Shown here piece after piece: positions 1 through 42,090 of a stretch of DNA of 57,820 bases. The DNA lies in NCBI GenBank assembly GCA_030605615.1, contig JAUWHZ010000027.1:1-57820 (forward strand), read 5' to 3'. The first letter of the stretch is position 1. Each line of letters starts with the position of its first letter. The notes under the pieces were generated by a model. That model searched no databases and had not been told where the DNA came from. It was given only the letters and a program-made list of their open reading frames with translations. The position numbers and the translations under genes are program-made. Source of the stretch: Atribacterota bacterium. Lineage in GTDB: Bacteria > Atribacterota > Phoenicimicrobiia > Phoenicimicrobiales > Phoenicimicrobiaceae.

Positions 1-327
1 GGGATACATAACAGGCGACTTATACAGTTCTTAGGACGTTTCGTCGGCGGTTGTTTAGCGGATAAGGGAATGATGTACATCAAACCAAACGGGGACGTAT
101 GGGCATGTCCTTTTATTCCCGTTCGGATGGGTAACGTGCGTGAAGAAGGGCTTGATAAGGTCAGGGAAAGGTTAAGAGGGTGCAAGTTTGAGCACGGCGA
201 AAGTGTGTCGTGGTGTGATGATTGCGAATATCAGCGGATATGTGGTGGTTGTAAGGCACGAATGATGATAGACAATTTAACATATATCTGTCCTGTGCAT
301 GACATATCGGAGCGAGGCACAGTCTAA
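1..327 (+). CDS. Radical SAM/SPASM-domain protein, C-terminal part (runs off window start)
   Basis: Frame open from base 1 (…GGCLADKGMMYIKPNGDVWACPF…CDDCEYQRICGGCKAR…CP), a SPASM Cys pattern. Confidence 0.8.
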   Translation, partial: GIHNRRLIQFLGRFVGGCLADKGMMYIKPNGDVWACPFIPVRMGNVREEGLDKVRERLRGCKFEHGESVSWCDDCEYQRICGGCKARMMIDNLTYICPVHDISERGTV

Positions 328-351
328 AAATCAAGTAAATTCACTGATTTA

Positions 352-450
352 TCACCGCGGAGCGTGCAGACTACGCAGAGTTTTTTAGACTGTTTCAATT
401 ATTGCTCGGGCTTTCTGGTGCCTTTGCGTTCTCCGTGTGCTCTGCGGTGA
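352..450. repeat. Imperfect inverted-repeat doublet (CACCGCRGAG…CGCAGAG type) between convergent genes
   Basis: 352-380 tcaccgcggagcgtgcagactacgcagag is similar to the reverse complement of 422-450. Confidence 0.65.
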
Positions 451-498
451 ATTTTAAGGATTTGGCAAGTTCAAAAAGTAAAATATTACATTAAATTA

Positions 499-1338
499 TT
501 ACATTAAATTTAGCCACTTCTGAATGAGCATTCCAAGAACAATTCCAAACAAAGCAGGGCTTAAAAAGCTGATTACCATCTTAATTCTTTCCTTTTTACT
601 ATCTTTAATAACTAAATGAAAAGTTTTTCCTGGTTTTAATTCCTTAGTTAATAAGTATCCGTTTGAAATTTTTTCTAACTTTATATCCTCTGTATTTTCT
701 ATTTTGAAATTTTCTGCTATATTTACCTCGAAAATAGTATTTTGGACTGATGCACGAAGATATGTTTCTTTATTTAAATGAGTACCTGAAAACTGTGTAT
801 CAAAAAAATACTCCCCCTCCCAAACACCAAAGGATGTCTGTTTAAGAAAAGGTTCGGTATTAACACTCATGGATGGTTGAGATTGCCATACCTGACTCCA
901 CACAGGAACGAATCCATTTTTAATAAAAGATGCTGTTATCAGGTAATCGGGTACATTTTTTCTCATATACTCTTCAGCCTTAGAACGATTAAATGTTTGT
1001 TCAAACCCATTCGCATCTTCCCAGAAGTCAATTTCTTTTGTAAAATTTTCGACTCCTATTTTAAATTCGCTGGTTGACCTCTTGAGTGGTTCTCTTATAC
1101 TAAACTTAATATAGCTAATTGGATTACGCTGCTTTGAAGCTATAGTGGGTTGTTCTTGTTCACCAACACTAATGGAAATATTTACTATATTTGCTTTTGA
1201 AACACTGTAATAGGTTTTTATAGGATCCAAAGAAATTTTATCGTAAAATATTGGAGTTAAAAAAAATAAGTAAGATCCTACTGAAATCAAAAGTAACGCT
1301 ATCAAAATAACTATTTGAGATATCATAATTTTCCCCAT
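499..1338 (-). CDS. Hypothetical membrane-anchored protein (N- and C-terminal TM segments)
   Basis: 279-aa ORF with hydrophobic ends; GGAGGTGA SD just upstream. Confidence 0.7.
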   Translation of the reverse strand: MGKIMISQIVILIALLLISVGSYLFFLTPIFYDKISLDPIKTYYSVSKANIVNISISVGEQEQPTIASKQRNPISYIKFSIREPLKRSTSEFKIGVENFTKEIDFWEDANGFEQTFNRSKAEEYMRKNVPDYLITASFIKNGFVPVWSQVWQSQPSMSVNTEPFLKQTSFGVWEGEYFFDTQFSGTHLNKETYLRASVQNTIFEVNIAENFKIENTEDIKLEKISNGYLLTKELKPGKTFHLVIKDSKKERIKMVISFLSPALFGIVLGMLIQKWLNLM

Positions 1339-1599
1339 TTTTCACCTCCTTATTTTTAAAAAATCTTTATATATAAAACTTGCTATTTTTGCTTACCCAC
1401 CTCTCCTCTGCATTCCCCTTATGGCTATGTTAATATCGTGTGGATTGTGGAATTACCATTTGACGCACTGCTGAACCGGAAGCGAGGACCGGAGTAGGAG
1501 TACCTCTTTCTTTCGCAGAATATTTTTTTGCAACAAGTCTATTTTACAGTTTGCATTTCTTAATATGCCCTTTCTTGTGTTAATCTGTGTAATCTGTGG

Positions 1600-1928
1600 T
1601 TAATAATTTTTGATTGCTCCGGTTTTCTCCTGCAGAATTTTCAGCGCTTCTTTTTCCCGGCTACCGCCGCACTTTTCTACAATACGTGCGTAAAGCGCCA
1701 TCAATTTTTCACGTTCCGCCCGGTCTCGCCCATCTTCCGTTATAGCGTTTCTCGTTGCAATGATAGCAGCTTCTATCACTGCGTTAAGCCCGCGGTTTAT
1801 CGCTTTCACCCCTTTTTGGTTTGTTTTTACTGCGAGGGGCGTCAGTTGAAAAATAAAAGTTTCGCGTGTCTTCTCGCTAAACGCACAGTCGAACAGTATC
1901 CACGAATTCGCTTCTTTTAACACGGGGA
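1600..1928 (-). pseudogene. DUF447-family (archaeal-type) protein, 5'-truncated
   Basis: PVLKEANSWILFDC…AINRGLNAVIEAAIIATR…IVEKCGG matches the DUF447 C-half; the first 17 aa of the ORF-track call are translated REP sequence. Confidence 0.65.
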
Positions 1929-1980
1929 CAGATTTGTCATTTATGTAAAATCTGGTGCCTGGCACAAAACTTGTCATTCA
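1929..1980. repeat. REP array (GTGCCWGGCAC family) abutting the RAYT stop codon
   Basis: caga-tttgtca-ttta-tgtaaaa-tctg-GTGCC-t-GGCAC-aaaa-cttgtca; near copy at 21858-21892. Confidence 0.8.
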
Positions 1981-2841
1981 TGATAGCAAAGAAATTTTAA
2001 TGTTACTTAACCATAGGCTAAAAAGGGGATCAGATTCTATATTCTTTTGCATTTTATTATTTATATTTAGAACAGACTGTCTGGTGATATGAAAAAGACG
2101 AGCTATTTCGGTTATTTTATATCCTTCTTTTACCAGGACGAAAATCAATAAATTTCTCAAATTTTTATTGGTATTAATATTGCCAAAATATTTATCAGCT
2201 TTTGCTAATATATAATCTATGTTTTTAGGTAAAGTAGCTTGGTTAAAGTTTGTTATTTCATTCAAAAGTATATCGATTTTTTTGTTCTTTTCAAAAGAAT
2301 TTTTTTTGATGAAATTAATAAATTCGTTGGTGCTTATTTCACAAAGCTGGAGAAATTCAGTTATTTTTAGCCAGGGAGGTGCATCTTTTTGCGAGATGAA
2401 ATAGCGAAAGCTCCCCCATTTATATTTTTCAGGCTCAGAAGCATCTACCATTCCTGCTTCAACTGGATTTAGATTAATGTAAGAGGAAATATTAAGTAAA
2501 TACTGAAAATTTAAAATAAGGTAACTTTTATATCTATCTTGGAAGAGATGTCCTTTACGCATATGTTTATAATTAAACCAGTGGGCATAAGAGGAATTTA
2601 AAAACTGCATGGCTTGAGAGAGATTTGCTTCTTCTGTCTTTAAAAGAAGGTGAAAGTGAGTATCCATTAGTACGTAGGAAAATAGGTGAACTTTGTGAAA
2701 GTTAACCATTTTTTGTAGGAGTTGTACAAATTTATTTCTATCTACATCATCAGTAAATATAGCAGCTCCTTCCACACCCTTACCAATTATATGATAAATA
2801 GCATTTTTGTCTTCTATATCTGTTCTATTTCTTCTTACCAT
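1978..2841 (-). mobile_element. REP-associated tyrosine transposase (RAYT, Y1_Tnp HUH) with C-terminal HTH
   Basis: YHIIGKG, MDTHFHLL (HUH), GHLFQDRY, YINLNPVEAG (catalytic Tyr region); HTH YKITEIARLFHITRQSV; palindromes on both sides. Confidence 0.9.
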
Positions 2842-2907
2842 AATGAGATTATTATATCTTTTATAAATAAATAGTTCAAGGGATTGTTTTCAGTATAAAA
2901 GCTGCTT

Positions 2908-2948
2908 AAAAGTTAACCAAAGGTGCCTGGCACCTTTGGTTAACTTTT
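2908..2948. repeat. REP palindrome, 20-bp arms
   Basis: aaaagttaaccaaaggtgcc-t-ggcacctttggttaactttt. Confidence 0.95.
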
Positions 2949-3042
2949 TTAAATAAAGTTTTGTTGGAGTTTTAAAAAGAAGTAGTGTATAATTGATTTT
3001 AGTTATTTTTACTACAAAAGTAAGTTAAAGTTTTTTTGATGA

Positions 3043-3159
3043 ATAAAAAAGGATCGAGAAAAGATTGTTCTAGAGATAAAATATAAAGGACTTCGTCTTG
3101 ATGATGAGACTTTAAGAATGATTTACCATGATAATATAGAGAGAATTTTTGTAAAATAA
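3043..3159 (+). pseudogene. Possible gene remnant resembling an amidohydrolase-family C-terminus
   Basis: Frame …KYKGLRLDDETLRMIYHDNIERIFVK* directly after an in-frame TGA, no plausible N-terminal start. Confidence 0.4.
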
Positions 3160-3291
3160 AATAAAATAAATAAGAACCAAAGGTGTTCCATACTATTATT
3201 TATAGCAAGATATCCATTAAATGATACTAAAAGCAAATCTTAATTGCCTTAGCGAATCGAAAAATATTTGAAGATAGGAATGTATTAAGAG

Positions 3292-5139
3292 ATGAAGAAA
3301 TTTTTTGTATTATTATTTGGACTAATTATTTTAATATTAATAGGGGGATGCCAAAATTTGGGAGATTTATTTCCTTTTTTAAATAGAGCACCCATTATAA
3401 CTTCTGAACCTGTTACCACTGCTCTCGAGGGCAATCTGTATTCATATCAGGTAGAGGTTAGTGATCCTGATGGAGATACTCTGACCTATTCTTTTACTCT
3501 CAAGCCAGAGGGAATGAACATTAATGATAAAAATGGTTTAATAACCTGGACGCCAACCAATGATCAGGTAGGAATGCACCAGGTAATTATAGAAATTTCT
3601 GATGGAAAACATAGTGTCCAACAGAACTTTGAAATTGAAGTTGTAAACGTGAATAATCCTCCCCAAATACTTTCTTATTTCCCTGCTAATCTCAGTTTTG
3701 AAATTAATGAAGGAGATTCGGTAAAATTTGAAGTTCAAGCCCACGATATTGACTTAAACACGACTTTAAATTATCAATGGTTTTTAAATGGAAATGAAGT
3801 ATTAAAATCCACTGGTTCAGGAAATGATTCAAAAAGTAGCTGGATTTACTCTTTTGGATATGGAGATTATGGGTTAAAAACAGTAAAGGTTCTAATAAGT
3901 GATGGAGAATTTACAGATAGTGTACAATGGAAAATAAATGTAAAAGATATAACTTCTCCCAATAAACCTACCTTAAGTGATATAATTTCACCTACCAACG
4001 TTTCTTCTCAGATTTTATCAGGGACTAAAGAAACTAATACTTCCATTTGGATTAATGGGAAAGAAGCGGTGCCAATAAATTCCGAGACTACTTGGTCATG
4101 TATTTTTGATTTGTCTGAAGGAAATAATAATATCTCAATTACTTCTCGCGATGCAGCTGGTAACGAAAGCTCCGCAGTAATCGCGACAATCGAATACGAT
4201 CCCAATATCTATGTAGATGCAGGAAATGCCACTGGAACAGAAGATGGGACCAAAACCCACCCCTTTCACACTATAGCCGAGGGGATAGATGCAGTTGCCC
4301 CTGGAAAATCGGTTATAGTAAGTGCAGGGACTTATAATGAACAGCTGGTAGTAAATAAAGGGATTGCCCTCCAGGGTGCTGGAAAGGAATCTGCTTTCAT
4401 AATCGGACTAGGATATGCTGGAAATTTAATTACTATTACAGCTGATAATGTCATAATATCCGGATTTAATATTGATGGCGAATCAGATACAGATATGGGA
4501 ATCTATAGTGACTCATCTTCTTCTATTGAAATATCAGAAAATTTAATCCAAAACCACCAGGATAGTGGAATTTTCTATCAAAGAATAAGCGATGATTATC
4601 CTTCAGGGATATATGTTTATAATAATGAGATATGTCTTAATTCTCAGAACGGAATAAAAGTTATGGAAGCAGGTTCTGGCATTATCGAGAGTAATATCAT
4701 TAGGAAAAATGATTGTGGAATTAAGGTTTCCAATAATGCATCTCTTGAGGTAAAAAAGAATGATATATATGATAATTATGATTCTGGCATTTTTTGTCGG
4801 GAAAGTTCTTCATTATTAATTTGGGAAAATGAGATCAGGACTAATAGTTATGGGATAAGGGTTGGTGAAAAATATAGCGATACTACTAATCCGGATATAG
4901 GAGGAGGAGCTAAAGGTGGAATCGGAAAGAATAATATCACAGGTAACACTTCCAACGGGATTATCAATATGACCGATCACAATATTTTCGCCAAATATAA
5001 CTGGTGGGGAGATGCCAATGGGCCTAAATATCCTGGAAATAATTCAAGTAGTGGCGATTGGGCTTATTGGGATGATGTTAATAATAAAACTGGTGATATT
5101 ATATTTGAAGATTATTTAATTGAACCCCAAACCTTTTAG
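3292..5139 (+). CDS. Lipoprotein with Ig-like repeats and right-handed beta-helix (NosD/pectin-lyase-like) domain
   Basis: Lipobox-like LIGGC; NRAPIITS…DPDGDTLTY Ig motif; YVDA…GTKTHPFHTI; Asn/Gly-Ile ladders; NWWG. Confidence 0.8.
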   Translation: MKKFFVLLFGLIILILIGGCQNLGDLFPFLNRAPIITSEPVTTALEGNLYSYQVEVSDPDGDTLTYSFTLKPEGMNINDKNGLITWTPTNDQVGMHQVIIEISDGKHSVQQNFEIEVVNVNNPPQILSYFPANLSFEINEGDSVKFEVQAHDIDLNTTLNYQWFLNGNEVLKSTGSGNDSKSSWIYSFGYGDYGLKTVKVLISDGEFTDSVQWKINVKDITSPNKPTLSDIISPTNVSSQILSGTKETNTSIWINGKEAVPINSETTWSCIFDLSEGNNNISITSRDAAGNESSAVIATIEYDPNIYVDAGNATGTEDGTKTHPFHTIAEGIDAVAPGKSVIVSAGTYNEQLVVNKGIALQGAGKESAFIIGLGYAGNLITITADNVIISGFNIDGESDTDMGIYSDSSSSIEISENLIQNHQDSGIFYQRISDDYPSGIYVYNNEICLNSQNGIKVMEAGSGIIESNIIRKNDCGIKVSNNASLEVKKNDIYDNYDSGIFCRESSSLLIWENEIRTNSYGIRVGEKYSDTTNPDIGGGAKGGIGKNNITGNTSNGIINMTDHNIFAKYNWWGDANGPKYPGNNSSSGDWAYWDDVNNKTGDIIFEDYLIEPQTF

Positions 5140-5154
5140 ATGAACGTTTCCAGG

Positions 5155-5244
5155 GGGTCCTGGTACCAACTTTACCAAAAGTTAACCAAAGGTGCCAGGC
5201 ACCTTTGGTTAACTTTTCTGGCACAAAAGTTTCCCTTTTTGTGC
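5155..5244. repeat. Multi-unit REP array with perfect palindrome 5177-5217
   Basis: gggtcctGGTACcaactttacc + aaaagttaaccaaaggtgcc-a-ggcacctttggttaactttt + ctGGCACaaaagtttccctttt. Confidence 0.9.
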
Positions 5245-5320
5245 TTGTTTGAAAGATAGTTGTATGGTATGTTATAAAATATAAAAAGATAGACCAAAAC
5301 ATGAGGAAGGAAGAGGAATT

Positions 5321-6418
5321 ATGGACGAGATAAGAAAAAATAAAAATAATATATTAGATGGAGATTTTTCTGGGCTGGATAAAGCTAATATGATAGAGTT
5401 GTTAGAGGAATTTCCTCAGAAGATGAGAGATGCTTTGCGTTTAGGAGAAGAATTTTCTATTCCTACCGCCTTTTCACCTGCTTCTGCCCAGAATTTTAAA
5501 AATATTGTGGTATTGGGAATGGGAGGCTCAGCTATCGGTGGTGATTTATTATCCAATTATTTAGCCGATGAATTATCCATCCCAATAGTAGTTATTCGTG
5601 GTTATGATATTCCAAAATTTGTAAATGAAAATTCTTTGGTGTTTGCAGTCAGTTATTCTGGAAACACTGAAGAGACTCTCTCTGCCTTAAAGAAATGCTT
5701 AGAGGCCAGAGCCAAAGTTGTTGCCTTAACTTCAGGTGGTAAATTTGAAGTTCTTTCCAAAGAAAATAACTTTCCCGTTATTAAAGTTCCAGCGGGGATT
5801 CAGCCTCGAGCCGCTATTTCTTATTTATTCTTTCCTATACTAAAAGTATTAGAAAGGCTGGACTTGATAAAAGAAAGAAATAAAGAAATAGAAGAAACAC
5901 TAAACATTATACAGGAACTTTCCAGAGAATATAGCAGCAAATCTCCGCTTAAAAACAATTTAGCCAAAAAGGTGGCTTTGAGCTTATACCAGCATCTACC
6001 TCTAGTTTGTGGCTCTGAAGGATTATTAGAGGCAGTGGCTATGCGTTGGAAGACCCAGATAAACGAAAATAGTAAATGGCCCTGTTTCTGGAATGTATTT
6101 TCTGAGCTGAATCATAATGAAATAGTCGGTTATGAAATAGAAAATAACATAAATCGACAGGTTAAAATTATTTATCTGGAAGATAAAGAGGGCTCTTTGC
6201 GGATAGAACAAAGGCGAGAGATTACCCGAAAGATTATCGAAGACAAAGTAGCAGAGTTCATAGTTTGTCCCACTAAAGGCAAGGGGAAATTGGCCTGCAT
6301 GTTCTCACTAATCTATTTAGGTGATTTGGTAAGCTATTATTTGGCAATCTTAAATCGGGTTGACCCTTCGCCAGTAGCGTGTATAGAAGATTTAAAAAAA
6401 GAATTAGCCAAACACTGA
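5321..6418 (+). CDS. Bifunctional phosphoglucose/phosphomannose isomerase (SIS)
   Basis: GMGGSAIGG, SYSGNTEET, QPRAA, RWKTQINENSK, ELNHNEI, VDPSPV. Confidence 0.92.
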   Translation: MDEIRKNKNNILDGDFSGLDKANMIELLEEFPQKMRDALRLGEEFSIPTAFSPASAQNFKNIVVLGMGGSAIGGDLLSNYLADELSIPIVVIRGYDIPKFVNENSLVFAVSYSGNTEETLSALKKCLEARAKVVALTSGGKFEVLSKENNFPVIKVPAGIQPRAAISYLFFPILKVLERLDLIKERNKEIEETLNIIQELSREYSSKSPLKNNLAKKVALSLYQHLPLVCGSEGLLEAVAMRWKTQINENSKWPCFWNVFSELNHNEIVGYEIENNINRQVKIIYLEDKEGSLRIEQRREITRKIIEDKVAEFIVCPTKGKGKLACMFSLIYLGDLVSYYLAILNRVDPSPVACIEDLKKELAKH

Positions 6419-6452
6419 GGTAACATTTTGTGCCTGGCACAAAATGTTACCT
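6418..6452. repeat. REP palindrome, variant arms (17 bp)
   Basis: aggtaacattttgtgcc-t-ggcacaaaatgttacct. Confidence 0.9.
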
Positions 6453-6490
6453 TGTTACTCGATTTATTTAAAAAAGAGGAGATTGTTTAT

Positions 6491-7414
6491 TTGAAATATA
6501 TAGAAGTTGGTATCATTGCCTTTGTAGTTTCCTATATCTTAACCCCCTATCTGGCCCGGGTAGGGAAAAAACAGAATATGGTGGATTTACCTGATCATCG
6601 TAAAGTACACGAAGAAGCTATTCCCAATTTAGGGGGAATAGTTATCTTTTTCGGCTTTTTATTGAGTTTGTTGTTTATTGTGCAGATAGAAGGACAGGTT
6701 AAAACCCTTATGGTGGGTGGGGTAATTATTTTGCTATTAGGCATAGTAGATGATATTGCTGACCTTTCTCCCAAACATAAATTTATAATTCAGATGATAC
6801 CAGCATTAATAGTGATTATATATAATAGTGATTTAATAAATAGTTTTATAGTTAATCAATTAAAAAGTCTTGATTTATTAGGTTATCTTCTTTATCCTGT
6901 CTTAATCTTCTGGATAGTAGGGGTCACAAATTCTATAAACCTAATAGATGGTTTAGATGGACTAGCCTGTGGAGTTTCAATTATCACCTTAATAACTTTT
7001 TTTGTTTTGGGTTTGAATCAAAATTTTGAAACCCTTAATCTTATATCTATCGCTCTGGCAGGAAGTATGTTAGCTTTTTTAAAATTTAACTTTTATCCGT
7101 CAAAGATTTTTTTAGGAGATTCAGGCAGCACTTTTAGCGGTTTTATGCTGGCCTCCATAGGGGCTTTGTGGGTGTTAAAAAGTGAAAATGTATTTTTTAT
7201 TTTTATTCCTATTATTATTCTAGCTTTACCTATTTTTGATACCCTGTTTGCTATTTTGAGGAGATACAGGGGCCATCATCCTATTTTTCAGGCTGATAAG
7301 GGCCATCTTCATCATCGTTTTTTGGCTCGAGGATTATCTCATAAAAATGCCGTACTCCTCTTGTGGGGAATAAGCGCCACCTGTAGCATAATCGCCCTTA
7401 TTTTAGCTCTGTAG
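6491..7414 (+). CDS. Undecaprenyl-phosphate GlcNAc-1-phosphate transferase (WecA/TagO, Glycos_transf_4)
   Basis: LGIVDD, NSINLIDGLDGL, FLGDSG, DKGHLHHR; start moved to TTG 6491 after GAGGAG because 6428 lies in the REP. Confidence 0.9.
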   Translation: MKYIEVGIIAFVVSYILTPYLARVGKKQNMVDLPDHRKVHEEAIPNLGGIVIFFGFLLSLLFIVQIEGQVKTLMVGGVIILLLGIVDDIADLSPKHKFIIQMIPALIVIIYNSDLINSFIVNQLKSLDLLGYLLYPVLIFWIVGVTNSINLIDGLDGLACGVSIITLITFFVLGLNQNFETLNLISIALAGSMLAFLKFNFYPSKIFLGDSGSTFSGFMLASIGALWVLKSENVFFIFIPIIILALPIFDTLFAILRRYRGHHPIFQADKGHLHHRFLARGLSHKNAVLLLWGISATCSIIALILAL

Positions 7415-7417
7415 TGT

Positions 7418-7460
7418 AAAAAGTTAACCAAAGGTGCCTGGCACCTTTGGTTAACTTTTT
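7418..7460. repeat. REP palindrome, 21-bp arms
   Basis: aaaaagttaaccaaaggtgcc-t-ggcacctttggttaacttttt. Confidence 0.95.
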
Positions 7461-7481
7461 GTAGCAGAAAGGAAAAGAAAC

Positions 7482-8525
7482 ATGAAATTAAAAAAGAGAA
7501 AAGAGCAAGTAAGTGAAAATGAAAAGACTACCGTTCTGGTTACCGGTGGGGCAGGCTTTATCGGTTCACATATTGTGGATTTATTTATCGAAAATAATTA
7601 TAGGGTGGTAGTAGTTGATGACCTCTCTTCAGGACGAGAAGAAAATTTAAATGAAGATGCCCAATTTTATAAATTAAACATTACTGATAAAAAAGGATTA
7701 GAAGAAGTATTTCAGCAAGAAAGACCTGATTATATCAGTCACCAGGCAGCTCAGATCAGTGTATCTCTCTCGGTAAGAGACCCTTTATTTGATGCCCAGA
7801 CCAATATTTTAGGTTCCTTAAATTTACTACAGTGCTGTGTAAATTATCAGGTTAAAGGAATAGTGTTTGCCTCCAGCGGAGGGACCATTTATGGAGAACC
7901 AGAGCATTTTCCGGTAAGCGAAGCCCATCCCCTCCAACCTTTATCTCCTTATGGAATTAGCAAAGTTACAGTAGAACATTATCTTGATTTTTATAGGAAA
8001 AATTATAATTTCCCTTATGTATCTTTGAGGTATGGAAATGTTTATGGGCCTCGTCAAGACCCTTATGGTGAGGCAGGAGTTATTGCCATATTTATAGAGA
8101 AGATGTTAAAAGGGGAGATCCCCACCATAAATGGTGACGGAGAATATATAAGAGATTATGTTTATGTAGGAGATGTGGCCCGGGCTAATTTACTCGCTAT
8201 CGAAAATATGTTAAAATTAGCTAAAGTTGTTCAGAAAGAAAAAATTGTAGAAGAAACTACGTATAATATTTATAATATTGATAACAATAGTTTTAATTTG
8301 GGCACCGGGGTCGGGGCCTCAGTAAATGAACTTTTTCATCTTTTAAGGGAGATTATAAAATTCCCCCATCCAGCAAATTATGGACCTCCTCGGGCAGGGG
8401 ATTTAAGAAAGAATATCCTGGATTGTCAACTGATCAAAAATGTTTGGGGATGGCAACCAGAAGTTAATTTATCTGAAGGGTTAAAAAAGACAGTCCATTG
8501 GTTTAAAAGGCAGCCCCTTCCTTAA
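7482..8525 (+). CDS. NAD-dependent epimerase (UDP-glucose 4-epimerase-like)
   Basis: VTGGAGFIG, PYGISK (YxxxK), LRYGNVYGPRQDP. Confidence 0.9.
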   Translation: MKLKKRKEQVSENEKTTVLVTGGAGFIGSHIVDLFIENNYRVVVVDDLSSGREENLNEDAQFYKLNITDKKGLEEVFQQERPDYISHQAAQISVSLSVRDPLFDAQTNILGSLNLLQCCVNYQVKGIVFASSGGTIYGEPEHFPVSEAHPLQPLSPYGISKVTVEHYLDFYRKNYNFPYVSLRYGNVYGPRQDPYGEAGVIAIFIEKMLKGEIPTINGDGEYIRDYVYVGDVARANLLAIENMLKLAKVVQKEKIVEETTYNIYNIDNNSFNLGTGVGASVNELFHLLREIIKFPHPANYGPPRAGDLRKNILDCQLIKNVWGWQPEVNLSEGLKKTVHWFKRQPLP

Positions 8526-8633
8526 ATAATTTAAAAAAATGGCTTACAAAAAGAGGATTTTTTTATTTTTTGTAGAATTAAAATATTAACAAGATATAAA
8601 AATATAAATTAAGGAATATTAAGGAATAAATAT

Positions 8634-10241
8634 ATGTCTGAATTTGGAATAACATACAAGATTATAGGTATTGTTGTAGCAAGTGCACTGATGATTATCC
8701 TGGGGAGAGTCGATAAAAAGAAAAAACTTTCTACAGGAAATAAGCTTATATTCCAGATCCTGATTTCTCTAATTGTAATATATTCCGGGGTTAAAATAGA
8801 ATTTTTAAGAGATCCTTCCTCATCCGGCGGGTATCTTTATCTTAACTTTTTAACCATACCTCTGACCATAATCTGGTTAATGAGCATTACTAACTCTATA
8901 GGTCAGGTGGATGAATGGGGAGAGATCACCCCTTATATTATTTTCATTGCTTCTTTAACTTTTTTAGCCGTTTCCCTAATTCAAAGACAAGGGTTAATTT
9001 TGGCAGAAGTTTTGTCTTTAATTTTGGCAGCAGTATCGTTTATTTTTATCAGATACCTGCCACGGAGAAAATTCTCTTCTTATTATATGTCTTTTGGATT
9101 TATATTAGCCATTATTGCTATTGTTGGTGTATTAAAAAGCACAGCTGCTTTAACTCTATTAATACCCCTTTTAATATTGGGGGTTCCACTTATTGATTTT
9201 TCTTATTCTATTGTGGCGGCTTATGCCCGCCCAGAAGTTCAAGGTCAGGGAGATTATCCCTCATTTTCAGAGAGTAGATTGCGACAAAAGTTACAATCTT
9301 ATGGCTTTTCTCCCAGAGGGGCTAATTTAACTATTATCGGTTCATCTCTATATTTAAGTTTTTCTGCCCTGATAATTTCAATAAACCAAAATCTCTATCT
9401 TTTAGTAGTGTTGGTAGTTTTTGGTGGATTAGTTTTTGAATTATTGACAAAACAGGTTAAATTAGGAGAAATAATCATAGGGGAGGATACTTCTAATCAT
9501 CGAGTTAGACTTTTTCAGGTAGGTATTGACCAGATAGATAATCAAAAGACTATTCAAAAGATCGAAGAATTTGTGATTTCTAAAAAACCTCACCTGGTGG
9601 TTACACCAGATACACTGGCTATATTGCGAGCAAGGAGAGATCCGGAATATCATGCTATATTAAAATCTGCTGATTTGATTACCCCTGATGGAGCAGGTAT
9701 TTTATGGGCCACCACGACCCTAAATTATCCTTTGACTGAAAGGGTAACTGGAATCGATATAATAAACAATATATGCCAATTAGCAATAAAGAAAGGGTAT
9801 TCTCTATATTTATTAGGTGCTTCTCCCGGCGTAGCAGAAGAAGCATCCCTAAACTTAACCAGACATTATCCCGGATTAAAGATTGTGGGAAGTCATCATG
9901 GTTATTTTGCTCCCCAAGGAGAAGTAGAGATTGTTAGAGAGATTAAAGAGAAGAGACCAGATATATTATTGGTAGGAATGGGTATGCCCAAACAAGAGAA
10001 ATGGATTGCTAAAAATTTAAACAAATTAAATGTTTCAGTATGTATGGGGGTAGGCGGCAGTTTTGATGTTATTTCCGGGAGGATACCGCGTGCACCACTA
10101 TGGATGCAAAAACATGGAATGGAATGGATTTATAGATCAATTAAGCAACCAAAGAGGGTTTTTTGGGTCTTAGCTCTTTTTTATTTTATCTGGTTGGTAG
10201 TTTTAGGAAAGATAGTATTTACTTTAAAAGAAGCGGATTAA
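8634..10241 (+). CDS. Fusion: degenerate MraY/WecA-like membrane domain + WecB/TagA/CpsF glycosyltransferase
   Basis: C-part PDGAG, ERVTGID, HHGYF, VGMGMPKQEKW, GVGGSFDV, RAP, MEWIYR; N-part polytopic and colinear with WecA. Confidence 0.85.
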   Translation: MSEFGITYKIIGIVVASALMIILGRVDKKKKLSTGNKLIFQILISLIVIYSGVKIEFLRDPSSSGGYLYLNFLTIPLTIIWLMSITNSIGQVDEWGEITPYIIFIASLTFLAVSLIQRQGLILAEVLSLILAAVSFIFIRYLPRRKFSSYYMSFGFILAIIAIVGVLKSTAALTLLIPLLILGVPLIDFSYSIVAAYARPEVQGQGDYPSFSESRLRQKLQSYGFSPRGANLTIIGSSLYLSFSALIISINQNLYLLVVLVVFGGLVFELLTKQVKLGEIIIGEDTSNHRVRLFQVGIDQIDNQKTIQKIEEFVISKKPHLVVTPDTLAILRARRDPEYHAILKSADLITPDGAGILWATTTLNYPLTERVTGIDIINNICQLAIKKGYSLYLLGASPGVAEEASLNLTRHYPGLKIVGSHHGYFAPQGEVEIVREIKEKRPDILLVGMGMPKQEKWIAKNLNKLNVSVCMGVGGSFDVISGRIPRAPLWMQKHGMEWIYRSIKQPKRVFWVLALFYFIWLVVLGKIVFTLKEAD

Positions 10242-10452
10242 TACTAAATAAACAATAATTAGTCAAAAAATAATTATAAAAAGTAAAAGATATTAATTAT
10301 TTGAAAAAGTACTGATAATAATAATTTTAACAGGATTAATCTTTCTGTCCTCTTAATCTTAAATGTTTAAATTGTTACCCCAATTCAATATACCAAAGAC
10401 AGCTGTCACCCTTCATAAAGCACCGTTTTAGTTGATAAATTTTAGGAGATGA

Positions 10453-10932
10453 ATGATGAAAACATACCTGAAAATTGGAATAATTGTAGCTGCCTTATTA
10501 ATTCAACTCACCCTTATTAATTTATTTACCATTCAGGGCCTGAAACCTGATTTAATATTATTAGTGGTGATAGTTTTTTCTCTGTTACAAGGGGCAGAAG
10601 AGGGGACTATTTTTGGATTTGCGTCTGGTCTTTTGCAGGATATTTTTTCCACTGGACTATTAGGTGTAAATGCCCTGGTTAAGACTGTAATAGGTTTTAT
10701 CTGTGGAATTTTAAAAGTAAGGATATTTGCTGAACATATCTTATTTATTATTCCCGTAATAACTTTTATAGTTTCGATTGGCCAGAGCATATTAATATTT
10801 TTGGTACTCCATGCTTTTGGGGTTGAATACAGTTTAGTTTGGAGCTTGAAACAAGTAGCCCTCCCCGAGGCTTTATATAACAGCCTATTATCACCTTTTA
10901 TTTTTCTAGCCGTAAAAAGAATCTTAAAGTAA
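10453..10932 (+). CDS. mreD: Rod shape-determining protein MreD
   Basis: KPDLILL…FGFASGLLQDIFS…GVNAL; upstream of mrdA-rodA. Confidence 0.88.
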   Translation: MMKTYLKIGIIVAALLIQLTLINLFTIQGLKPDLILLVVIVFSLLQGAEEGTIFGFASGLLQDIFSTGLLGVNALVKTVIGFICGILKVRIFAEHILFIIPVITFIVSIGQSILIFLVLHAFGVEYSLVWSLKQVALPEALYNSLLSPFIFLAVKRILK

Positions 10933-10974
10933 AAAATGTAAAAAAAAGTGCCTGGCACAAAATTTTACATTTTT
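10932..10974. repeat. REP palindrome with 4-nt A/A internal bubble
   Basis: aaaaatgtaaaa-aaaa-gtgcc-t-ggcac-aaaa-ttttacattttt. Confidence 0.85.
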
Positions 10975-10998
10975 GAAAAAAGAATTAATAGAGAAAAG

Positions 10999-11874
10999 AT
11001 GATAAAATATAAATATAATAGATGTTTATGGTTGATAATAATAACAGTATTTGTACTTGTGCTTTTAGCCGGGGTTATACCGGTTAGAGCAGAAGTGGGA
11101 GCACCCTTATCAGAAGAGAAGATCGGGGTAGTAGTTACTATCATCCCTTTAGCTGATTTTGTAGAGCAAGTGGGTAAGGATAAGGTGGGAGAAGTTACAG
11201 TTATGGTACCTTCAGGGGCTAACCCTCATACTTATGAGCCGACACCTGTTCAACTCAAAAGGATTAGTCAAGCCCAATTATATGTCAAAGTGGGGTCTGG
11301 AGTAGACTTTGAATTAGCCTGGATGGACAAAATAAGGGTGATAAATAAAGAAATGTTAATTTGTGATTCTTCACAGGGTATTAAGCTGATAAACCAGGAT
11401 CCCCATATATGGCTTTCTCCCCGAAATGCTAAAATTATGGTACAAAATATTTACCAGGCCTTAGCTGAAATTGACCCATATAGCCGAGAGTATTTTGAGA
11501 GAAATGCAATAGAATTTATTAAAAATTTAGACAGGCTGGATGAGGAGATTAGAATTCAATTTATTAGGATGGAGAATAAAACATTTTTATCTTACCACCC
11601 TTCTTGGAATTATTTTGCTAAGGATTATAGCCTTATTCAGTTAGCAATTGAAGATGAAGGTAAGGAGCCGAGCGCTGCCTATTTAGCCCATATAATAGAT
11701 CAAGCGAGAACTTACCATATATCTATTATCTTAGTCTCACCACAATTTAATATTAAAAGTGCCGAGGTGGTAGCTAAAGAAATAGGGATTGAGATTATAG
11801 TAATTGATCCATTATCTCAGGATTATATAAAAAATCTTAAAAAATTAGCCGATGAAATGGTTGGCAATGGGTGA
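10999..11874 (+). CDS. znuA: Zn/Mn ABC transporter substrate-binding protein
   Basis: GANPHTYEP, DPHIWLSP, YHPSWNYF, DPL; start moved out of the REP to ATG 10999. Confidence 0.88.
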   Translation: MIKYKYNRCLWLIIITVFVLVLLAGVIPVRAEVGAPLSEEKIGVVVTIIPLADFVEQVGKDKVGEVTVMVPSGANPHTYEPTPVQLKRISQAQLYVKVGSGVDFELAWMDKIRVINKEMLICDSSQGIKLINQDPHIWLSPRNAKIMVQNIYQALAEIDPYSREYFERNAIEFIKNLDRLDEEIRIQFIRMENKTFLSYHPSWNYFAKDYSLIQLAIEDEGKEPSAAYLAHIIDQARTYHISIILVSPQFNIKSAEVVAKEIGIEIIVIDPLSQDYIKNLKKLADEMVGNG

Positions 11875-11884
11875 TGAATAGATA

Positions 11885-12679
11885 ATGAATCTGGATAATA
11901 AAAATCAAAAGAATAAAAACCAAGAAACTATAATAGAAGTTATAAATTTAAAAAATGTCTGGGTAGATTATGATGATATTGTTGTGTTAGAAGATATAAA
12001 TCTTTCTATATACCAACATGAGTTTTTAGGAATAATAGGACCTAATGGTGGGGGCAAGACCACTTTGCTTAAAGTTGTCCTCGGTTTAGTTCAACCCAGC
12101 AAGGGAGAGGTTAATATTTTAGGGGTAAAGCCAGAAGAGGGCAGGGGATATGTTGGTTATGTTCCACAACACTGTCTTTTTGATCGAGGATTTCCTATAA
12201 GCGTTTGGGAGGTAGTATTGACAGGAAGATTGGGTAAGGGTAAATATTACAAGGCCTATAATAAAGTAGATAAACAAAAGGCACAAGATGTACTTGACCT
12301 TGTCGGAATGTCAGAATTTAAAGGGAAACAGATAGGAAAACTTTCTGAAGGTCAACAAAAACGTGTTTTCATTGCCCGAGCCTTAGTGACTGACCCTAAG
12401 ATTTTGCTGCTTGACGAGCCTTTGGCGAGTATCGATACTCCCTTGCAAACAGAATTTTATGAAATATTAGATAAGTTAAAAGAAAAGATGGCTATTATTT
12501 TGGTTACTCATGACCTTAGTGCAGTCTCGGTTTATGTGGATAAGATCGCCTGTCTAAATCGAAGGCTTTTTTATCATAATTCCAAGGAGATAAGTGTAAA
12601 AGATTTAGAAGAGACTTATCGTTGTCCGGTAGACCTGATCGCCCACGGTATTCCCCACCGGGTATTGAAAAAACATTAA
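11885..12679 (+). CDS. znuC: Zn/Mn ABC transporter ATP-binding protein
   Basis: GPNGGGKTT, GYVPQ, LSEGQQKR, LLLDEP, VTHD. Confidence 0.9.
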   Translation: MNLDNKNQKNKNQETIIEVINLKNVWVDYDDIVVLEDINLSIYQHEFLGIIGPNGGGKTTLLKVVLGLVQPSKGEVNILGVKPEEGRGYVGYVPQHCLFDRGFPISVWEVVLTGRLGKGKYYKAYNKVDKQKAQDVLDLVGMSEFKGKQIGKLSEGQQKRVFIARALVTDPKILLLDEPLASIDTPLQTEFYEILDKLKEKMAIILVTHDLSAVSVYVDKIACLNRRLFYHNSKEISVKDLEETYRCPVDLIAHGIPHRVLKKH

Positions 12680-12765
12680 AAATAATAAAAGATAAAAATC
12701 AATAGAAAAAAGAAAAAAATTAGAAAACTCGAAATTTAAATTAAAATTTAAAGGTAACAAAAAGA

Positions 12766-13593
12766 ATGATGGACATTTTCCAGTATGAGTTTATGAGAAA
12801 TGCCTTATTAGCCATATTATTAGCTAGTATTGCTTGTGGGATTGTGGGTGTTTATGTGGTAGTAAAAAGGATTGTCTTTATAAGTGGAGGGATTGCCCAC
12901 GCCTCTTTTGGAGGTATCGGGTTAGGATATTTTTTAGGTATAAATCCTATTTGGGGTTTAATACCTTTTAGCATTACCTCTGCTCTGGTTATGGGATTGA
13001 TAAGTAAACGTACCAAGATACCAGAGGATACCGCTATTGGAATATTATGGGCACTGGGAGTATCCTTGGGGATTATCTTTATTGGCTTGAGTCCAGGTTA
13101 TGCCCCAGACCTTTTCAGTTATCTTTTTGGTAATATATTAACGGTGACTTCGGCTGATTTAATGGTAATGTTGGTCTTAGATTTAGTGATAATTAAAGTA
13201 GTATTTCTGTTTTATAAAGAATTTTTAGCCCTATCTTTTGATGATGAATTTGCTACAGTAGTGGGAATTCCAACCGAGAAACTGTATCTTCTTCTTTTAT
13301 GTTTGATTGCCCTGACTGTAGTAGTACTGATGAGAGTGGTAGGCATTATTTTAGTAATTGCTTTATTAACCATTCCTGCAGCGATAAGCAAGCAGTTTAC
13401 TGCCAATCTAAAGAAGATGATGTTTATTTCTGTCCTTCTTAGCGCAATCTTTGGTATAATGGGCTTAGTCCTGTCTTATCAGTTTAATTTAGCATCTGGG
13501 GCGACAATAGTGATGGTCTCAGGGATTGGGTTTATGCTTTCCTGGCTTTATAAATATAAATATAAAAAATGTAAAATACAGGTAAATAGATGA
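12766..13593 (+). CDS. znuB: Zn/Mn ABC transporter permease
   Basis: [31 protein letters not shown]. Confidence 0.9.
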
Positions 13594-13601
13594 TTATAGA
13601 T

Positions 13602-13666
13602 GATCCTGGTATCAAACTTTATCAAAAGGGAAACAAAAGTGCCTGGCACTTTTGTTTCCCTTTTGA
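13602..13666. repeat. REP array: degenerate half-unit + perfect palindrome 13622-13666 with variant 22-bp arms
   Basis: gatcctggtatcaaacttta + tcaaaagggaaacaaaagtgcc-t-ggcacttttgtttcccttttga. Confidence 0.9.
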
Positions 13667-13681
13667 AATTGAGGAGAAAAT

Positions 13682-15445
13682 ATGAAGGAATCTTCTACTG
13701 TTCCGGAAGATGTGAAACAGCGACTAAATTGGGTATTAATATTTATTATTATATGCTTTTCTGTTTTAGTTATTAGTCTGTGGTATCTACAAATGATTAA
13801 AGGAGAAGAACTTAGTAAAAGGGCAGTAGAAAATTGCATTCGTTCATTAGTCGAAGATGCTCCTCGGGGGAATATTTATGACCGTTATGGAGAGATGTTA
13901 GTGACCAATCGGCCAGCGGTGATAGTTTCGATAATTCCGGCGGAGGTTGATAATTTAAAAGAATTAAGTAAAAGATTAAGTAAAATAATTGGCCTTTCCG
14001 AGGAAGTTATTGAGCAAAAAGTAAAAAAATATACGGATAATCCCTTTAAGCCAGTAAAGATTTTAGATGATTGTAGGAAAGATAAAATAATTGAAATCGA
14101 AGAGAGAAAAAGTGAACTAAAGGGAGTGGTTTTAGAGGTTCAACCCAGGAGGAATTATCTTTATCACGAATTAGCAGCTCATAGCTTGGGGCATGTGGGA
14201 GAAATAGATAAAGAAGAGTTGCAAAGATTGGGTAACCCCAAATTCCAGGGAGGAGATATAATCGGCAAAACCGGGCTGGAGAAGTATTATGATGACATTT
14301 TAAGAGGAGAAAAAGGAGGAAAAGAAGTTGAGGTCGATGCCTTGGGCCGAGAAATAGCTCTGCTATTACATCGGAAACCTGTACCAGGCAAAGATTTGGT
14401 TCTAACTATTGATAGAGATCTACAACTCTACGGAGAAAATTTACTTTACGGAAAAAGAGGGTCTATTATAGTAAGTAACCCTTATAATGGCGAGATATTA
14501 GCTTTAGTTAATAGACCTTCTTTTAATCCTAATTTATTTGTCAGTGGAATTTCTTATCCTGATTGGGAGAGACTTTCTTCAGACCCCGATTATCCTTTAA
14601 CCAACCGGAGTGTCCAGGGTGTCTATGCCCCTGGTTCAATATTTAAAGTAGTTACTGCCATAGCTGCCTTGGAAGAAGGGGTTACCAATAGAAAGAGAAA
14701 AGTCTATTGTTCCGGTACTTTTGAGTTAGCTGATCAGGTTTTTACTTGCTGGAAGGAATTAGGGCATGGTAGTTTAAGCTTTGTCGATGGCATTGCTCAT
14801 TCCTGCAATATTTATTTTTATACAATAGGAAAAGAACTGGGGATTGAAGGATTTAGTAAATATATGCATAAATTTGGATTGGGAGAGAAAGTGGGTATTG
14901 ATTTACCAGCAGAAGCTCTAGGAACAATCCCTTCCTCTGAATGGAAGCAGAGGGAGCATAAACAGATATGGTTTCCTGGTGATACTATAAATCTTTCCAT
15001 AGGTCAGGGATATCTTTTATTAACTCCTTTACAGATTCACAGTATTATTTGTGCGGTGACTACAGAAGGGGAGATTTACCGATTACATCTGGTAAAAGAG
15101 ATAATTTCTCCTGATGGGGAAACAATTAAAGAAATTACGCCAGAAGTTTACCGGAAAGTAGATATTTCTACCAGCACTTTTCGAACTGTTAAGGAGGGAT
15201 TAAGAGCTACTATATTAAAAGGAACGGGTTGGCGGGCAAATGTTAAGGAACTATCGATAGCTGGTAAAACCGGAACAGCGCAAAACCCCCAAGGAGAAAC
15301 CCATGCTTGGTTTATGGGATTTGCCCCTTATGAGAATCCCGAAGTTTGCATCACCATTTTTATAGAAAATGGGGGAGAAGGGGGAGAAATAGCTGCCCCC
15401 ATAGCCCGCGCCATGCTGGAGAAATATTTTAATACCCAAAAATAA
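13682..15445 (+). CDS. mrdA: Penicillin-binding protein 2
   Basis: APRGNIYDR, PGSIFK (SxxK), SCN (SxN), KTGTAQ. Confidence 0.95.
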   Translation: MKESSTVPEDVKQRLNWVLIFIIICFSVLVISLWYLQMIKGEELSKRAVENCIRSLVEDAPRGNIYDRYGEMLVTNRPAVIVSIIPAEVDNLKELSKRLSKIIGLSEEVIEQKVKKYTDNPFKPVKILDDCRKDKIIEIEERKSELKGVVLEVQPRRNYLYHELAAHSLGHVGEIDKEELQRLGNPKFQGGDIIGKTGLEKYYDDILRGEKGGKEVEVDALGREIALLLHRKPVPGKDLVLTIDRDLQLYGENLLYGKRGSIIVSNPYNGEILALVNRPSFNPNLFVSGISYPDWERLSSDPDYPLTNRSVQGVYAPGSIFKVVTAIAALEEGVTNRKRKVYCSGTFELADQVFTCWKELGHGSLSFVDGIAHSCNIYFYTIGKELGIEGFSKYMHKFGLGEKVGIDLPAEALGTIPSSEWKQREHKQIWFPGDTINLSIGQGYLLLTPLQIHSIICAVTTEGEIYRLHLVKEIISPDGETIKEITPEVYRKVDISTSTFRTVKEGLRATILKGTGWRANVKELSIAGKTGTAQNPQGETHAWFMGFAPYENPEVCITIFIENGGEGGEIAAPIARAMLEKYFNTQK

Positions 15446-15446
15446 A

Positions 15447-15510
15447 AAAAGTTAACCAAAGGTGCCTGGCACCTTTGGTTAACTTTTGGTAAAGTTTGGT
15501 GCCGGGATCC
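15447..15510. repeat. REP palindrome (15447-15487) plus extra half-unit
   Basis: aaaagttaaccaaaggtgcc-t-ggcacctttggttaactttt-ggtaaagtttggtgccgggatcc; near reverse complement of 5155-5217. Confidence 0.95.
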
Positions 15511-15531
15511 CAATTTTTTGGAGGATGGAAG

Positions 15532-16638: not shown

Positions 16639-16682
16639 GGTGGTTAACTAGTTAACCAATTTGCATTTAGGGAGAGAAGAAT

Positions 16683-19288: not shown

Positions 19289-19437
19289 TTTTTAATTAAT
19301 TAAAAGAGATAAAATAATATTTATGCTTAACTGAAGGATAATAAATCTATTAGAGTAGAATTTATTATCCTTTACTATTAGAGTTATTTAGAGTAAGATA
19401 ATGTAAAAGAATTTAAAAGCAAAACAGGAGTTTTTGA

Positions 19438-20955: not shown

Positions 20956-20984
20956 GGTTTACTCAATACGCAATACGAAATTAT

Positions 20985-21013
20985 TTGACAACTAAATAAA
21001 TATATGCTAAATT
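20985..21013 (+). promoter_or_regulatory. Sigma70 promoter for rplU operon
   Basis: TTGACA-17 nt-TAAATT with TG extension. Confidence 0.65.
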
Positions 21014-21029
21014 TTATAAGCATTTGTTT

Positions 21030-21105
21030 ATATCCGCACAGGTTGGGTGCATAAAGTGCGAAAAGTGATTAATCAAATTTAATTACTACCTAATCCTGGC
21101 GAGTT
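21030..21105 (+). ncRNA. Ribosomal protein L21 leader
   Basis: CCGCAC-aggttgggt…acctaatcct-GGCGAG directly upstream of rplU. Confidence 0.75.
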
Positions 21106-21130
21106 TTGAAAACAAGGAGGATTCCAAGAA

Positions 21131-21442: not shown

Positions 21443-21534
21443 AAAAGAGGATAAAATTATCTAAAATAATTTTTTATCGATAAGTTATGATATAATATAA
21501 TTACTGGTAGATTTTAAGAGGTGAGGTGATAATT

Positions 21535-21851: not shown

Positions 21852-21857
21852 AGTATT

Positions 21858-21892
21858 ATGTAAAAAAAAGTGCCTGGCACAAAATTTGTCAT
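21858..21892. repeat. REP (GTGCCWGGCAC family), imperfect
   Basis: atgtaaaa-aaaa-gtgcc-t-ggcac-aaaa-tttgtcat. Confidence 0.85.
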
Positions 21893-41461: not shown

Positions 41462-42072
41462 TTCTTAAAGAAAAAGATACCATCAAACGTTTAGGAATAA
41501 TGGGAGGGGTATTTGACCCCGTACATTATGGGCATTTATTTACGGCTGAAGAAGCAAGGATTAAATTTAAATTAGATAAAGTAATATTTGTACCCTGCCG
41601 TCAGCCGACCCATAAACGAGAGAATAACATTTCTGATCCAGAACATCGGTATTTGATGACTATTTTAGCTACTGGCAATAACCCATTTTTTGAAGTATCT
41701 AAAATGGAACTTCGTCGACCAGGCCCTTCTTATTCTATCGATACAGTGAAAGAATTTATAAAGAAATATAATCATGGGATAAAAATATTTTTTATTACCG
41801 GAGCTGATGCCTTCTTAGAGATAGATTCTTGGTATAAAAGCGAGGAATTAATTAAGCTTTGTCGATTTGTAGCAGCTACTCGTCCGGGATATGATTTAAA
41901 TAAATTAGATCAAAAATTTAAAAAAGTTATCAAAATTATGGAGATTCCCGCCCTGGCTATATCTTCTACTGATATTAGAAAAAGGGTGAGAGAGAGAAAG
42001 GGCATCAAATATCTGGTTCCCTATAAAGTGGAAGAATATATCTACAAAAATGGATTATATCGTAAAATGTAA
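41461..42072 (+). CDS. nadD: Nicotinate-nucleotide adenylyltransferase (start uncertain; first ATG is 41500)
   Basis: KRLGIMGGVFDPVHYGHL, SYSIDT, ITGAD, ISSTDIR. Confidence 0.92.
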   Translation: MLKEKDTIKRLGIMGGVFDPVHYGHLFTAEEARIKFKLDKVIFVPCRQPTHKRENNISDPEHRYLMTILATGNNPFFEVSKMELRRPGPSYSIDTVKEFIKKYNHGIKIFFITGADAFLEIDSWYKSEELIKLCRFVAATRPGYDLNKLDQKFKKVIKIMEIPALAISSTDIRKRVRERKGIKYLVPYKVEEYIYKNGLYRKM

Positions 42073-42090
42073 CATTTTGTGCCTGGGTCC
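42064..42090. repeat. REP half-site (GTGCC family) overlapping the nadD stop
   Basis: aaaa-tgtaaca-tttt-gtgcc-t-gggtcc. Confidence 0.7.

Follow-up and report, generated by a model that had tools for sequence, protein, structure and literature searches.

The window, i.e. the whole stretch of 57,820 nucleotides of Atribacterota DNA that was analysed, is contig C6 of a metagenome bin (624 kb, 27 contigs, 65.7% complete). Near its left end lies a RAYT transposase gene flanked by hairpin repeats with the 11-nt core GTGCCWGGCAC, and further copies of the repeat are dispersed along the window (Table 1).

Table 1. The RAYT gene and the hairpin elements of the window (positions in nucleotides of the window unless residues are given).
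Feature	Position	Strand	Remarks
Imperfect 'Q type' element (ATGACAA..GTGCC-W-GGCAC..)	1929..1977	.	core 1955-1965, abuts RAYT stop codon
RAYT gene	1978..2841	-	intact 287-aa ORF, Y1/HUH domain and C-terminal DnaA-domain-IV-like HTH
HTH tail of RAYT	residues about 200-287 = nt 1981-2244	-	fold match to DnaA domain IV
Perfect 41-bp palindrome 'P type' (AAAAG-N7-AAAGGTGCC-W-...)	2908..2948	.	20-nt arms, 1-nt centre
Dispersed P-type copy	5177..5217	.	stem as in 2908-2948; between two + strand genes
Dispersed perfect palindrome	6418..6452	.	17-nt arms, stem differs (GGTAACATTTT)
Dispersed P-type copy	7418..7460	.	orthologous site in other genera filled with other stems
Dispersed imperfect copy	10932..10974	.	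arms 81% complementary
Dispersed perfect palindrome	13622..13666	.	22-nt arms, stem GGGAAAC
Dispersed P-type copy	15447..15487	.	orthologous site empty in G035 and G041
Dispersed imperfect copy (ATGTAAA..GTGCC-T-GGCAC..TTGTCAT)	21857..21892	.	
Half copy	42064..42086	.	left arm plus GTGCCTGG, nothing more

The gene had been predicted to encode a Y1/HUH transposase with a C-terminal HTH, and this is what is found. The product matches Pfam Y1_Tnp (PF01797) with E 8.1e-11 and 42.5 bits, above the cut-off of 23, and scores 55.9 bits against the NCBIfam equivalog NF047646 (REP_Tyr_transpos), under the cut-off of 80. The HUH motif lies at H62-F-H64 (THFH) and Tyr121 within YINLNP; FQ is also present, and H62, H64, Y121 and N125 are invariant in an alignment of 48 homologs. 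A PDB search with the single sequence returned nothing relevant, and a profile of the 48-sequence alignment was required to reach the closest solved relative, E. coli TnpAREP (4er8, E 1.2e-6). The AlphaFold (AF2) model (mean pLDDT 85.9) leads to the same protein, with 4er8_A as top Foldseek match (E 5e-7, TM 0.74 on target) and IS200, ISDra2 and IS608 transposase chains at ranks 2-24. It is by predicted fold that the HTH is recognised: residues 200-287, modelled separately (pLDDT 87.7), have as best structural matches DNA-bound DnaA domain IV (3pvp, 1j1v; TM 0.74-0.76 over the whole domain), with non-significant Foldseek E values of 0.14-0.17, and the Pfam HTH_7 and HTH_23 matches of the tail fall under their cut-offs.

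To which class does this protein belong? The product carries the Y...NP signature of RAYT class 2, and its gene is flanked by a repeat dispersed in intergenic DNA, as in that class; the repeat, however, has no GT[AG]G foot, and 4 of the 5 protein residues that would contact one differ. In Quentin et al. (2018; PMC6006769), subclass 2.1 is defined by the HuH motifs NH[YF]H or NHVH, by FQ or W[EQ], by YIELNP or Y[IV]HLNP, and by a C-terminal HTH of the Bac_DnaA_C, HTH_23 or HTH_28 type. The paper equates it with Bertels' Group 1 and most 'TIRYT' of Di Nocera et al. (2013; PMC3733652), gives it as the largest RAYT class (14.9% of strains), and reports that REP-like sequences were not found near its genes. 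Judged by motifs and a DnaA_C-like tail as set against Table 1 of PMC6006769, the window RAYT fits TnpAY1 subclass 2.1, i.e. Bertels Group 1 or 'TIRYT'. Its THFH has T where the table gives N, and its HTH is assigned from the sub-threshold Pfam matches and the DnaA domain IV fold. GGGGWSAS inverted repeats, expected for the subclass, are replaced at its flanks by GGTGCC-W-GGCACC. Homologs are extremely numerous, with 27,813 representatives of clusters at E <= 0.001. Among the papers listed in the literature searched, none is a biochemical study of subclass 2.1, Group 1 or TIRYT, and neither an assigned substrate nor a tested activity was found. The original prediction of a distinct, probably little-characterised RAYT-REP system is supported, with one refinement: the protein is not of an unknown lineage, as its motifs place it in subclass 2.1.

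The bin has two further Y1 genes. One (L001, G000:C3:4573-5370) is a third 2.1-like gene, encoding 265 aa with 37% identity to the window RAYT, and is bracketed by 28-nt inverted repeats that are 89% complementary, partly self-complementary and without the GTGCC core. The other (L004, G000:C12:43178-43705) encodes a short protein of 175 aa with the motifs NDHIH and YIANNP, which lies far from the other Y1 proteins in the tree; no core is present within the surrounding 3.3-kb locus.

The repeats had been described as an array touching the stop codon of the transposase gene, a perfect 41-bp palindrome upstream of it, and copies at eight more sites, all without GTAG. The palindrome is indeed present, 66 nt upstream of the ATG at 2841. 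Contact with the stop codon is also real, but what touches it is a single imperfect unit and not an array. Recurrence holds at the sites named, where core starts (1955, 2923, 5192, 6430, 7434, 10948, 13639, 15462 and 21870) agree with the element starts, except that the one at 42064 is a half copy and not a full one. The lack of GTAG was borne out as well, with GTAG/CTAC seen 3 times against 8.2 expected from genome frequency in 81-nt windows around the 17 copies of the genome. The core itself is far in excess of chance: 9 in the window against 0.09 expected, a number reached in 0 of 100 shuffles, and 17 in the 624-kb genome.

Perfect copies are predicted to fold strongly as single-stranded DNA (-16.7 to -23.6 kcal/mol, z -7.3 to -10.1), and the palindrome upstream of the gene is among them (-20.4 kcal/mol, z -7.7); for the element that abuts the stop codon, predicted folding is on a par with its shuffles (z -0.89). 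The central base, A or T, showed no clear pattern with gene direction among the 17 copies. Some P-type copies (5140-5260, 15488-15511) adjoin a one-sided half-site-like sequence (GGTAAAGTTTGGTGCC or its complement), and at 5218-5250 there is a second small hairpin that begins CTGGCAC; these flanks and the small hairpin suggest composite or nested units. The core was not found as a bacterial repeat in the literature searched, where examples drawn in figures could escape a search. The matches listed for the string are unrelated to bacterial repeats, the one bacterial instance being a primer, and the string is absent from the supplements of PMC3733652 and, as an 11-mer, from those of PMC6006769.

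Is the bracket a peculiarity of this locus? Twelve loci were compared: L006-L016, which hold 11 orthologs, and L002, which is the second copy in the bin (G000). A core hairpin stands on every flank that is uncut by a contig end (12/12 loci); nine loci have core hairpins on both sides, about 979 bp apart, and in L007, L009 and L011 one flank is cut by a contig end. Stems differ among loci through paired changes (GTTAACC, GTTTCCC, GGGAAAC, GTGTCCT, GTAACCC). The orthologs split weakly into two groups (SH-aLRT 84-85). A group of 10, which includes the C9 copy of the bin, has perfect P-type palindromes at its flanks; the window RAYT groups with L006, with L007 beside them, and these have flanks of the imperfect Q type. 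The window RAYT itself has the Q type at its 3' end and the P type at its 5' end, and a Q-type element likewise follows the stop codon in L006, a 91%-identical ortholog locus.

The C9 RAYT is 64% identical to that of the window. C9:1-1216 and C6:1978-3330 have a common layout, which takes in the upstream palindrome, some 60 nt past it and the start of a homolog of the gene at 3292, and every other genome has one of the two RAYT versions alone. The two copies in the bin are therefore probably not paralogs but a single locus in two versions, contributed by related strains that were binned together.

A survey of 86 Atribacterota genomes, the window genome included, links the repeat to the gene. 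Orthologs (cut-off E <= 1e-50) are present in 21 genomes, all of family f1, and each of these has 10-30 cores; reversed-pattern controls gave 0-1 across genomes. Had the repeat been equally abundant in relatives without the RAYT, the proposed link would have failed; instead, 57 of the 65 genomes without an ortholog have 0-3 cores. The eight exceptions are G009 and seven incomplete or fragmented f1 genomes with 6-21 cores and no ortholog found (G037, G038, G039, G047, G048, G049 and G059). G009, of another family, has 56 cores and two RAYTs 38-39% identical to the window RAYT, with cores nearby: 270 bp upstream of the first gene, and 82 bp upstream and 263 bp downstream of the second. In G049 the contig begins 228 nt before the neighbouring gene and so does not reach the place where a RAYT would be expected, and G037 has a partial gene, 50% identical, at a contig start. 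Of the other five genomes, three are 59-63% complete. Two f1 genomes have 0 cores: G035, with no ortholog, and G041, where a RAYT remnant at the corresponding locus has 12 stops (1 TGA and 11 TAA) and decayed flanking elements. The repeats are thus lost where the RAYT gene is dead or absent.

One stretch of G009 (L178, G009:C55:1-11000) holds 11 cores in 11 kb, all of which share one central base when read on one strand; their stem contains a bulge (AACTTAAC-GGTGCC-T-GGCACC-AAGTTAT), and AAGTTAT repeats often follow. Elsewhere cores are often paired, with a spacing of 36-37 nt in G036, G042 and G043 (a single G036 pair is spaced by 45 nt) and of 24-35 nt in G089 (Acidobacteriota). Most pairs with strands listed are inverted, as in REPIN doublets; the window genome has single copies only.

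The stems covary. In 85 distinct copies from the phylum, selected by the 11-nt core alone, 82.8% of the cells of the 20-pair stem are paired against 65.3% in shuffles, double-sided changes number 263 against 122, and the covariation score is 0.378 against 0.147, with 0 of 500 shuffles reaching 0.378. In slid registers, pairing is at most 48.9%.

The gene block at 4800-16000 is syntenic across the family, and the RAYT gene lies about 3.3-3.6 kb from the first matched base of the block, both in the window and in 7 further genomes that represent 3 additional genera. The same intergenic sites (5192, 7434, 15462) are filled in several genera, each genome with its own stem. Of 11 arm positions, 3.1 differ when copies of one genome are compared (186 pairs) and 5.6 when the copies come from different genomes (3384 pairs). 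This is the main argument for ongoing copying or overwriting, as static conserved hairpins would not be alike within a genome and different between genomes. Since copy numbers are low and many copies stand at conserved positions, it is from stem turnover that we infer movement in the phylum. Orthologous sites are also found empty among those that can be mapped: 6430, 7434 and 15462 in both G035 and G041, and 5192 in G041. At the site of the copy at 15447..15487, six relatives have an intact core, one has a decayed one and G035 and G041 have none. Comparison of filled with empty sites revealed no clear target sequence or duplication.

Copies cluster around the gene. In the bin, 14 of 17 lie on C6:1955-21870 and C9:237-9149; in genomes of 1.0-2.0 Mb the figures are 9 of 25 within 21 kb (G042), 9 of 11 within 30 kb (G043), 10 of 22 within 26 kb (G045) and 9 of 18 within 20 kb (G057). 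As the sites are orthologous, much of this clustering is inherited.

Does the repeat extend beyond the phylum? An exact scan for AAAGGTGCCWGGCACCTTT over one genome per species (596 Gb) gave at least 129 stretches, against about 4 expected by chance at equal base frequencies. Among the matches listed, 80 loci come from about 43 assemblies, those with many loci belonging to Planctomycetota, Actinomycetes, Acidobacteriota, Bdellovibrionota, Acidimicrobiales, Elusimicrobia, Hyphomicrobiales and Atribacterota; single matches in other taxa may be chance. Outer stems in the listed matches are lineage-specific and the tip is constant, with arm positions 6-9 constant by construction, as the scan fixed them. 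The tip GGTGCC-W-GGCACC recurs in Planctomycetota, Actinomycetota, Acidobacteriota and Elusimicrobiota. A tblastn search with four Y1 proteins of the genome matched 5 of the 129 listed loci. A candidate bracket in Acidimicrobiales (L085), two palindromes 1008 bp apart with the GTTAACC stem that also occurs in the window, was rejected: the 317-aa gene between them is not a RAYT and reads by eye as MBL-fold hydrolase-like. Proximity in the scan therefore says little, and whole genomes were searched.

In five genomes chosen for many loci, GGTGCCWGGCACC is present in 78-323 copies (controls 0-1), and in each of the five, one or two Y1 genes are core-flanked, on both sides in L147, L148, L153, L154 and L161 and on the downstream side only in L150. 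The remaining 24 of the 30 Y1 loci examined from these genomes have no core. An Elusimicrobia locus too has a core bracket around a 2.1-like RAYT. Paralogs that lack the core stand between inverted repeats like the GGGGWSAS ones in the literature: GGGGTCAG-type repeats flank L193 and L149, and one such repeat, a full palindrome tipped GGGGTC-W-GACCCC, lies beside a gene whose sister, also in that genome, is core-linked.

Do core-linked RAYTs descend from one ancestor that carried the tip? Monophyly was considered and rejected. Nine label changes are needed on the tree, at least five of them forced by starred branches; the tree, made by a quick method, leaves out 10 of 11 near-identical G087 RYVLQN-group paralogs and duplicate rows, and a FastTree run agrees that the core-linked RAYTs are not one clade. 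The tip thus switches between close relatives or arose repeatedly, and a simple clade-to-tip co-evolution is unsupported. The co-occurrence of a RAYT clade with GTGCCWGGCAC that had been proposed as a check holds within the phylum, as the 21 ortholog genomes attest, but does not extend to a single core-linked RAYT clade.

What, then, is this system? It is probably REPtron-like, a vertically inherited and likely single-copy subclass 2.1 Y1/HUH transposase together with its own family of hairpin palindromes. The fold and catalytic residues, the bracket, the co-occurrence, the stem covariation, the likeness of stems within genomes and the loss of repeats along with the gene were all computed here. 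The palindromes bracket the RAYT gene and, in intergenic spaces nearby, closely follow stop codons. Most likely, as in TnpAREP and IS608, the enzyme would bind the hairpin on transiently single-stranded DNA. Specificity would lie in GGTGCC-W-GGCACC, the GC-rich tip that stays constant, and not in a GTAG foot, and Tyr121 and the HUH metal site would carry out cleavage and rejoining. Hairpins would be copied or overwritten, mostly near the gene of the enzyme. The DnaA-like HTH tail might add duplex or tip contacts, or might serve autoregulation via the palindrome upstream of the gene. A promoter-like match, a consensus match only, lies between that palindrome and the RAYT start codon (2879-2851).

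Could the palindromes instead be operator-like duplex sites for the HTH tail, with a RAYT that moves no DNA and has been domesticated as a local DNA-binding protein to regulate or organise the cluster of cell-envelope genes next to it? The resemblance of the tail to a duplex-binding domain of DnaA, the fact that in five genomes 40-80% of copies stand no more than 20-30 kb from the gene, the many sites conserved between genera and the position of one palindrome about 29 nt upstream of the promoter-like match for the RAYT gene all accord with such a role. It is nevertheless an unlikely one, as the catalytic His and Tyr residues are invariant, other phyla have their many copies spread over many contigs, and a fixed operator leaves both the paired stem substitutions and the likeness within genomes unexplained.

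The position of the copies raises a second alternative, that they serve the host as ordinary terminators or as stabilisers of mRNA 3' ends, among which the transposase gene happens to lie. All 17 genomic copies are intergenic, most with core centres 17-25 nt past the stop codon of the upstream gene, and the stems have an A run at their start and a T run at their end. However, only one of eight copies in 1500-21499 scores terminator-like, because the T run is within the stem. The tip stays constant as the stems change, relatives that lack the gene also lack the hairpins, and in GC-rich phyla RAYT genes stand between hairpins that have this tip and no T run after them, all of which makes this origin very improbable. 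Least probable of all, with hardly any chance of being correct, is that hairpin, gene and hairpin form an autonomous IS200/IS605-like insertion sequence, as two versions in the bin, contigs that break at the locus and a gene between two hairpins might suggest: the motif is Y...NP and not Y...Q, many near-identical whole copies are not found, solo hairpins far outnumber genes, each genome has one syntenic locus, in 7 other genomes at the distance from the gene block given above, and the two versions in the bin, at 64% identity, resemble variants of one locus.

The probable REPtron-like system can be set beside those already described. With subclass 2.1, Group 1 and TIRtrons it shares the xH[YF]H, FQ and Y[IV]xLNP motifs, a C-terminal HTH, a low copy number and flanking inverted sequences that form moderately abundant families; paralogs in the same genomes have the published GGGGWSAS-type inverted repeats. 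TIRs, some of them self-complementary, make up moderately abundant families with GGGGWSAS in common according to PMC3733652, and flanking 16-mers of Group 1 occur about 12 times per replicon according to Bertels et al. (2017; PMC5581495). Here, in contrast, whole palindromes tipped GGTGCC-W-GGCACC take the place of GGGGWSAS flanks, and repeats reach 78-323 copies in the five other-phylum genomes, whereas PMC6006769 reports no REP-like sequences near genes of subclass 2.1.

E. coli TnpAREP (subclass 2.2/Group 2, 4er8) is the best structural and profile match, with HUH plus Y...NP, and its REP/BIME hairpins likewise bracket the gene and have dispersed intergenic copies near stop codons. It differs in having a GTAG foot, absent here, where the conserved part is the tip of the hairpin, and in having no extra HTH domain. 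Of the E. coli residues that read GTAG according to PMC6006769 (W94, Q95, E100, H101 and R104), Q95 alone is kept; the profile alignment gives F100, Q101, S106, Y107 and L110 in the window RAYT. The Pseudomonas REPIN-RAYT system (Group 3) is similar in its vertical inheritance at a fixed locus, in repeat populations tied to the gene and in inverted doublets, which occur in some hosts here (24-37 nt apart in G036, G042, G043 and G089); Atribacterota copies, unlike those of Pseudomonas, are mostly single, few (10-30) and concentrated round the gene. The IS200/IS605 TnpA proteins (IS608, ISDra2) have the Y1 fold, and their recognition of single-stranded hairpins is the model for the proposed mechanism. 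They have Y...Q where Y...NP is found here, with no whole-unit copies seen and a syntenic position across genera.

A wider proposal is put forward tentatively, as it has somewhat less than an even chance of being correct: GGTGCC-W-GGCACC hairpins might constitute a REP superfamily, present in at least five phyla and serviced by tip-reading Y1 transposases of subclass 2.1 with a DnaA-like tail, which would overwrite hairpins at fixed intergenic sites again and again, above all near their own gene, and so keep them alike, with decay of the population after death of the gene. If true, a superfamily with up to 323 copies per genome would belong to enzymes of the largest RAYT class, reported as REP-less, and a GTAG foot would not be required for REP recognition. 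The hairpin, being well defined, strongly structured and shared by many genomes, would offer a concrete substrate for the first biochemistry on subclass 2.1. The Atribacterota genomes, with the gene present, dead or absent and the same sites filled or empty, offer a natural series on repeat maintenance.

The GTGCCWGGCAC repeats break metagenome assemblies at the RAYT locus, and this bears on the reading of such bins. The left end of the window (1-1977) consists of GC-richer pieces, with the end of a radical-SAM/SPASM-like ORF at 1-327 and, at 1600-1977, an ORF of 125 aa that is 5'-truncated in appearance and has DUF447_C as its sole match. Four public runs were compared as contigs. At 1500-1750, summed contig depth is 100 to 1000 times that of the neighbours in two of them, both cold-seep runs, and below that of the neighbours in the other two, and loose contig ends are numerous at about 1570-1611, 1853-1871 and 1928. 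Given the depth anomaly and the loose ends, the DNA left of 1977, with its truncated DUF447_C ORF, may have been misjoined or may belong to a strain-specific piece whose end is the repeat. Joints at 1977/1978, 2959, 5183 and 7539 lie at repeats and have sides of 23-30 letters, so they are not taken as signs of excision or circles. No Rfam family matches the window at gathering thresholds, the segment 48001-49000 included, where GC content is 47% against 30-38% elsewhere and GC skew is negative.
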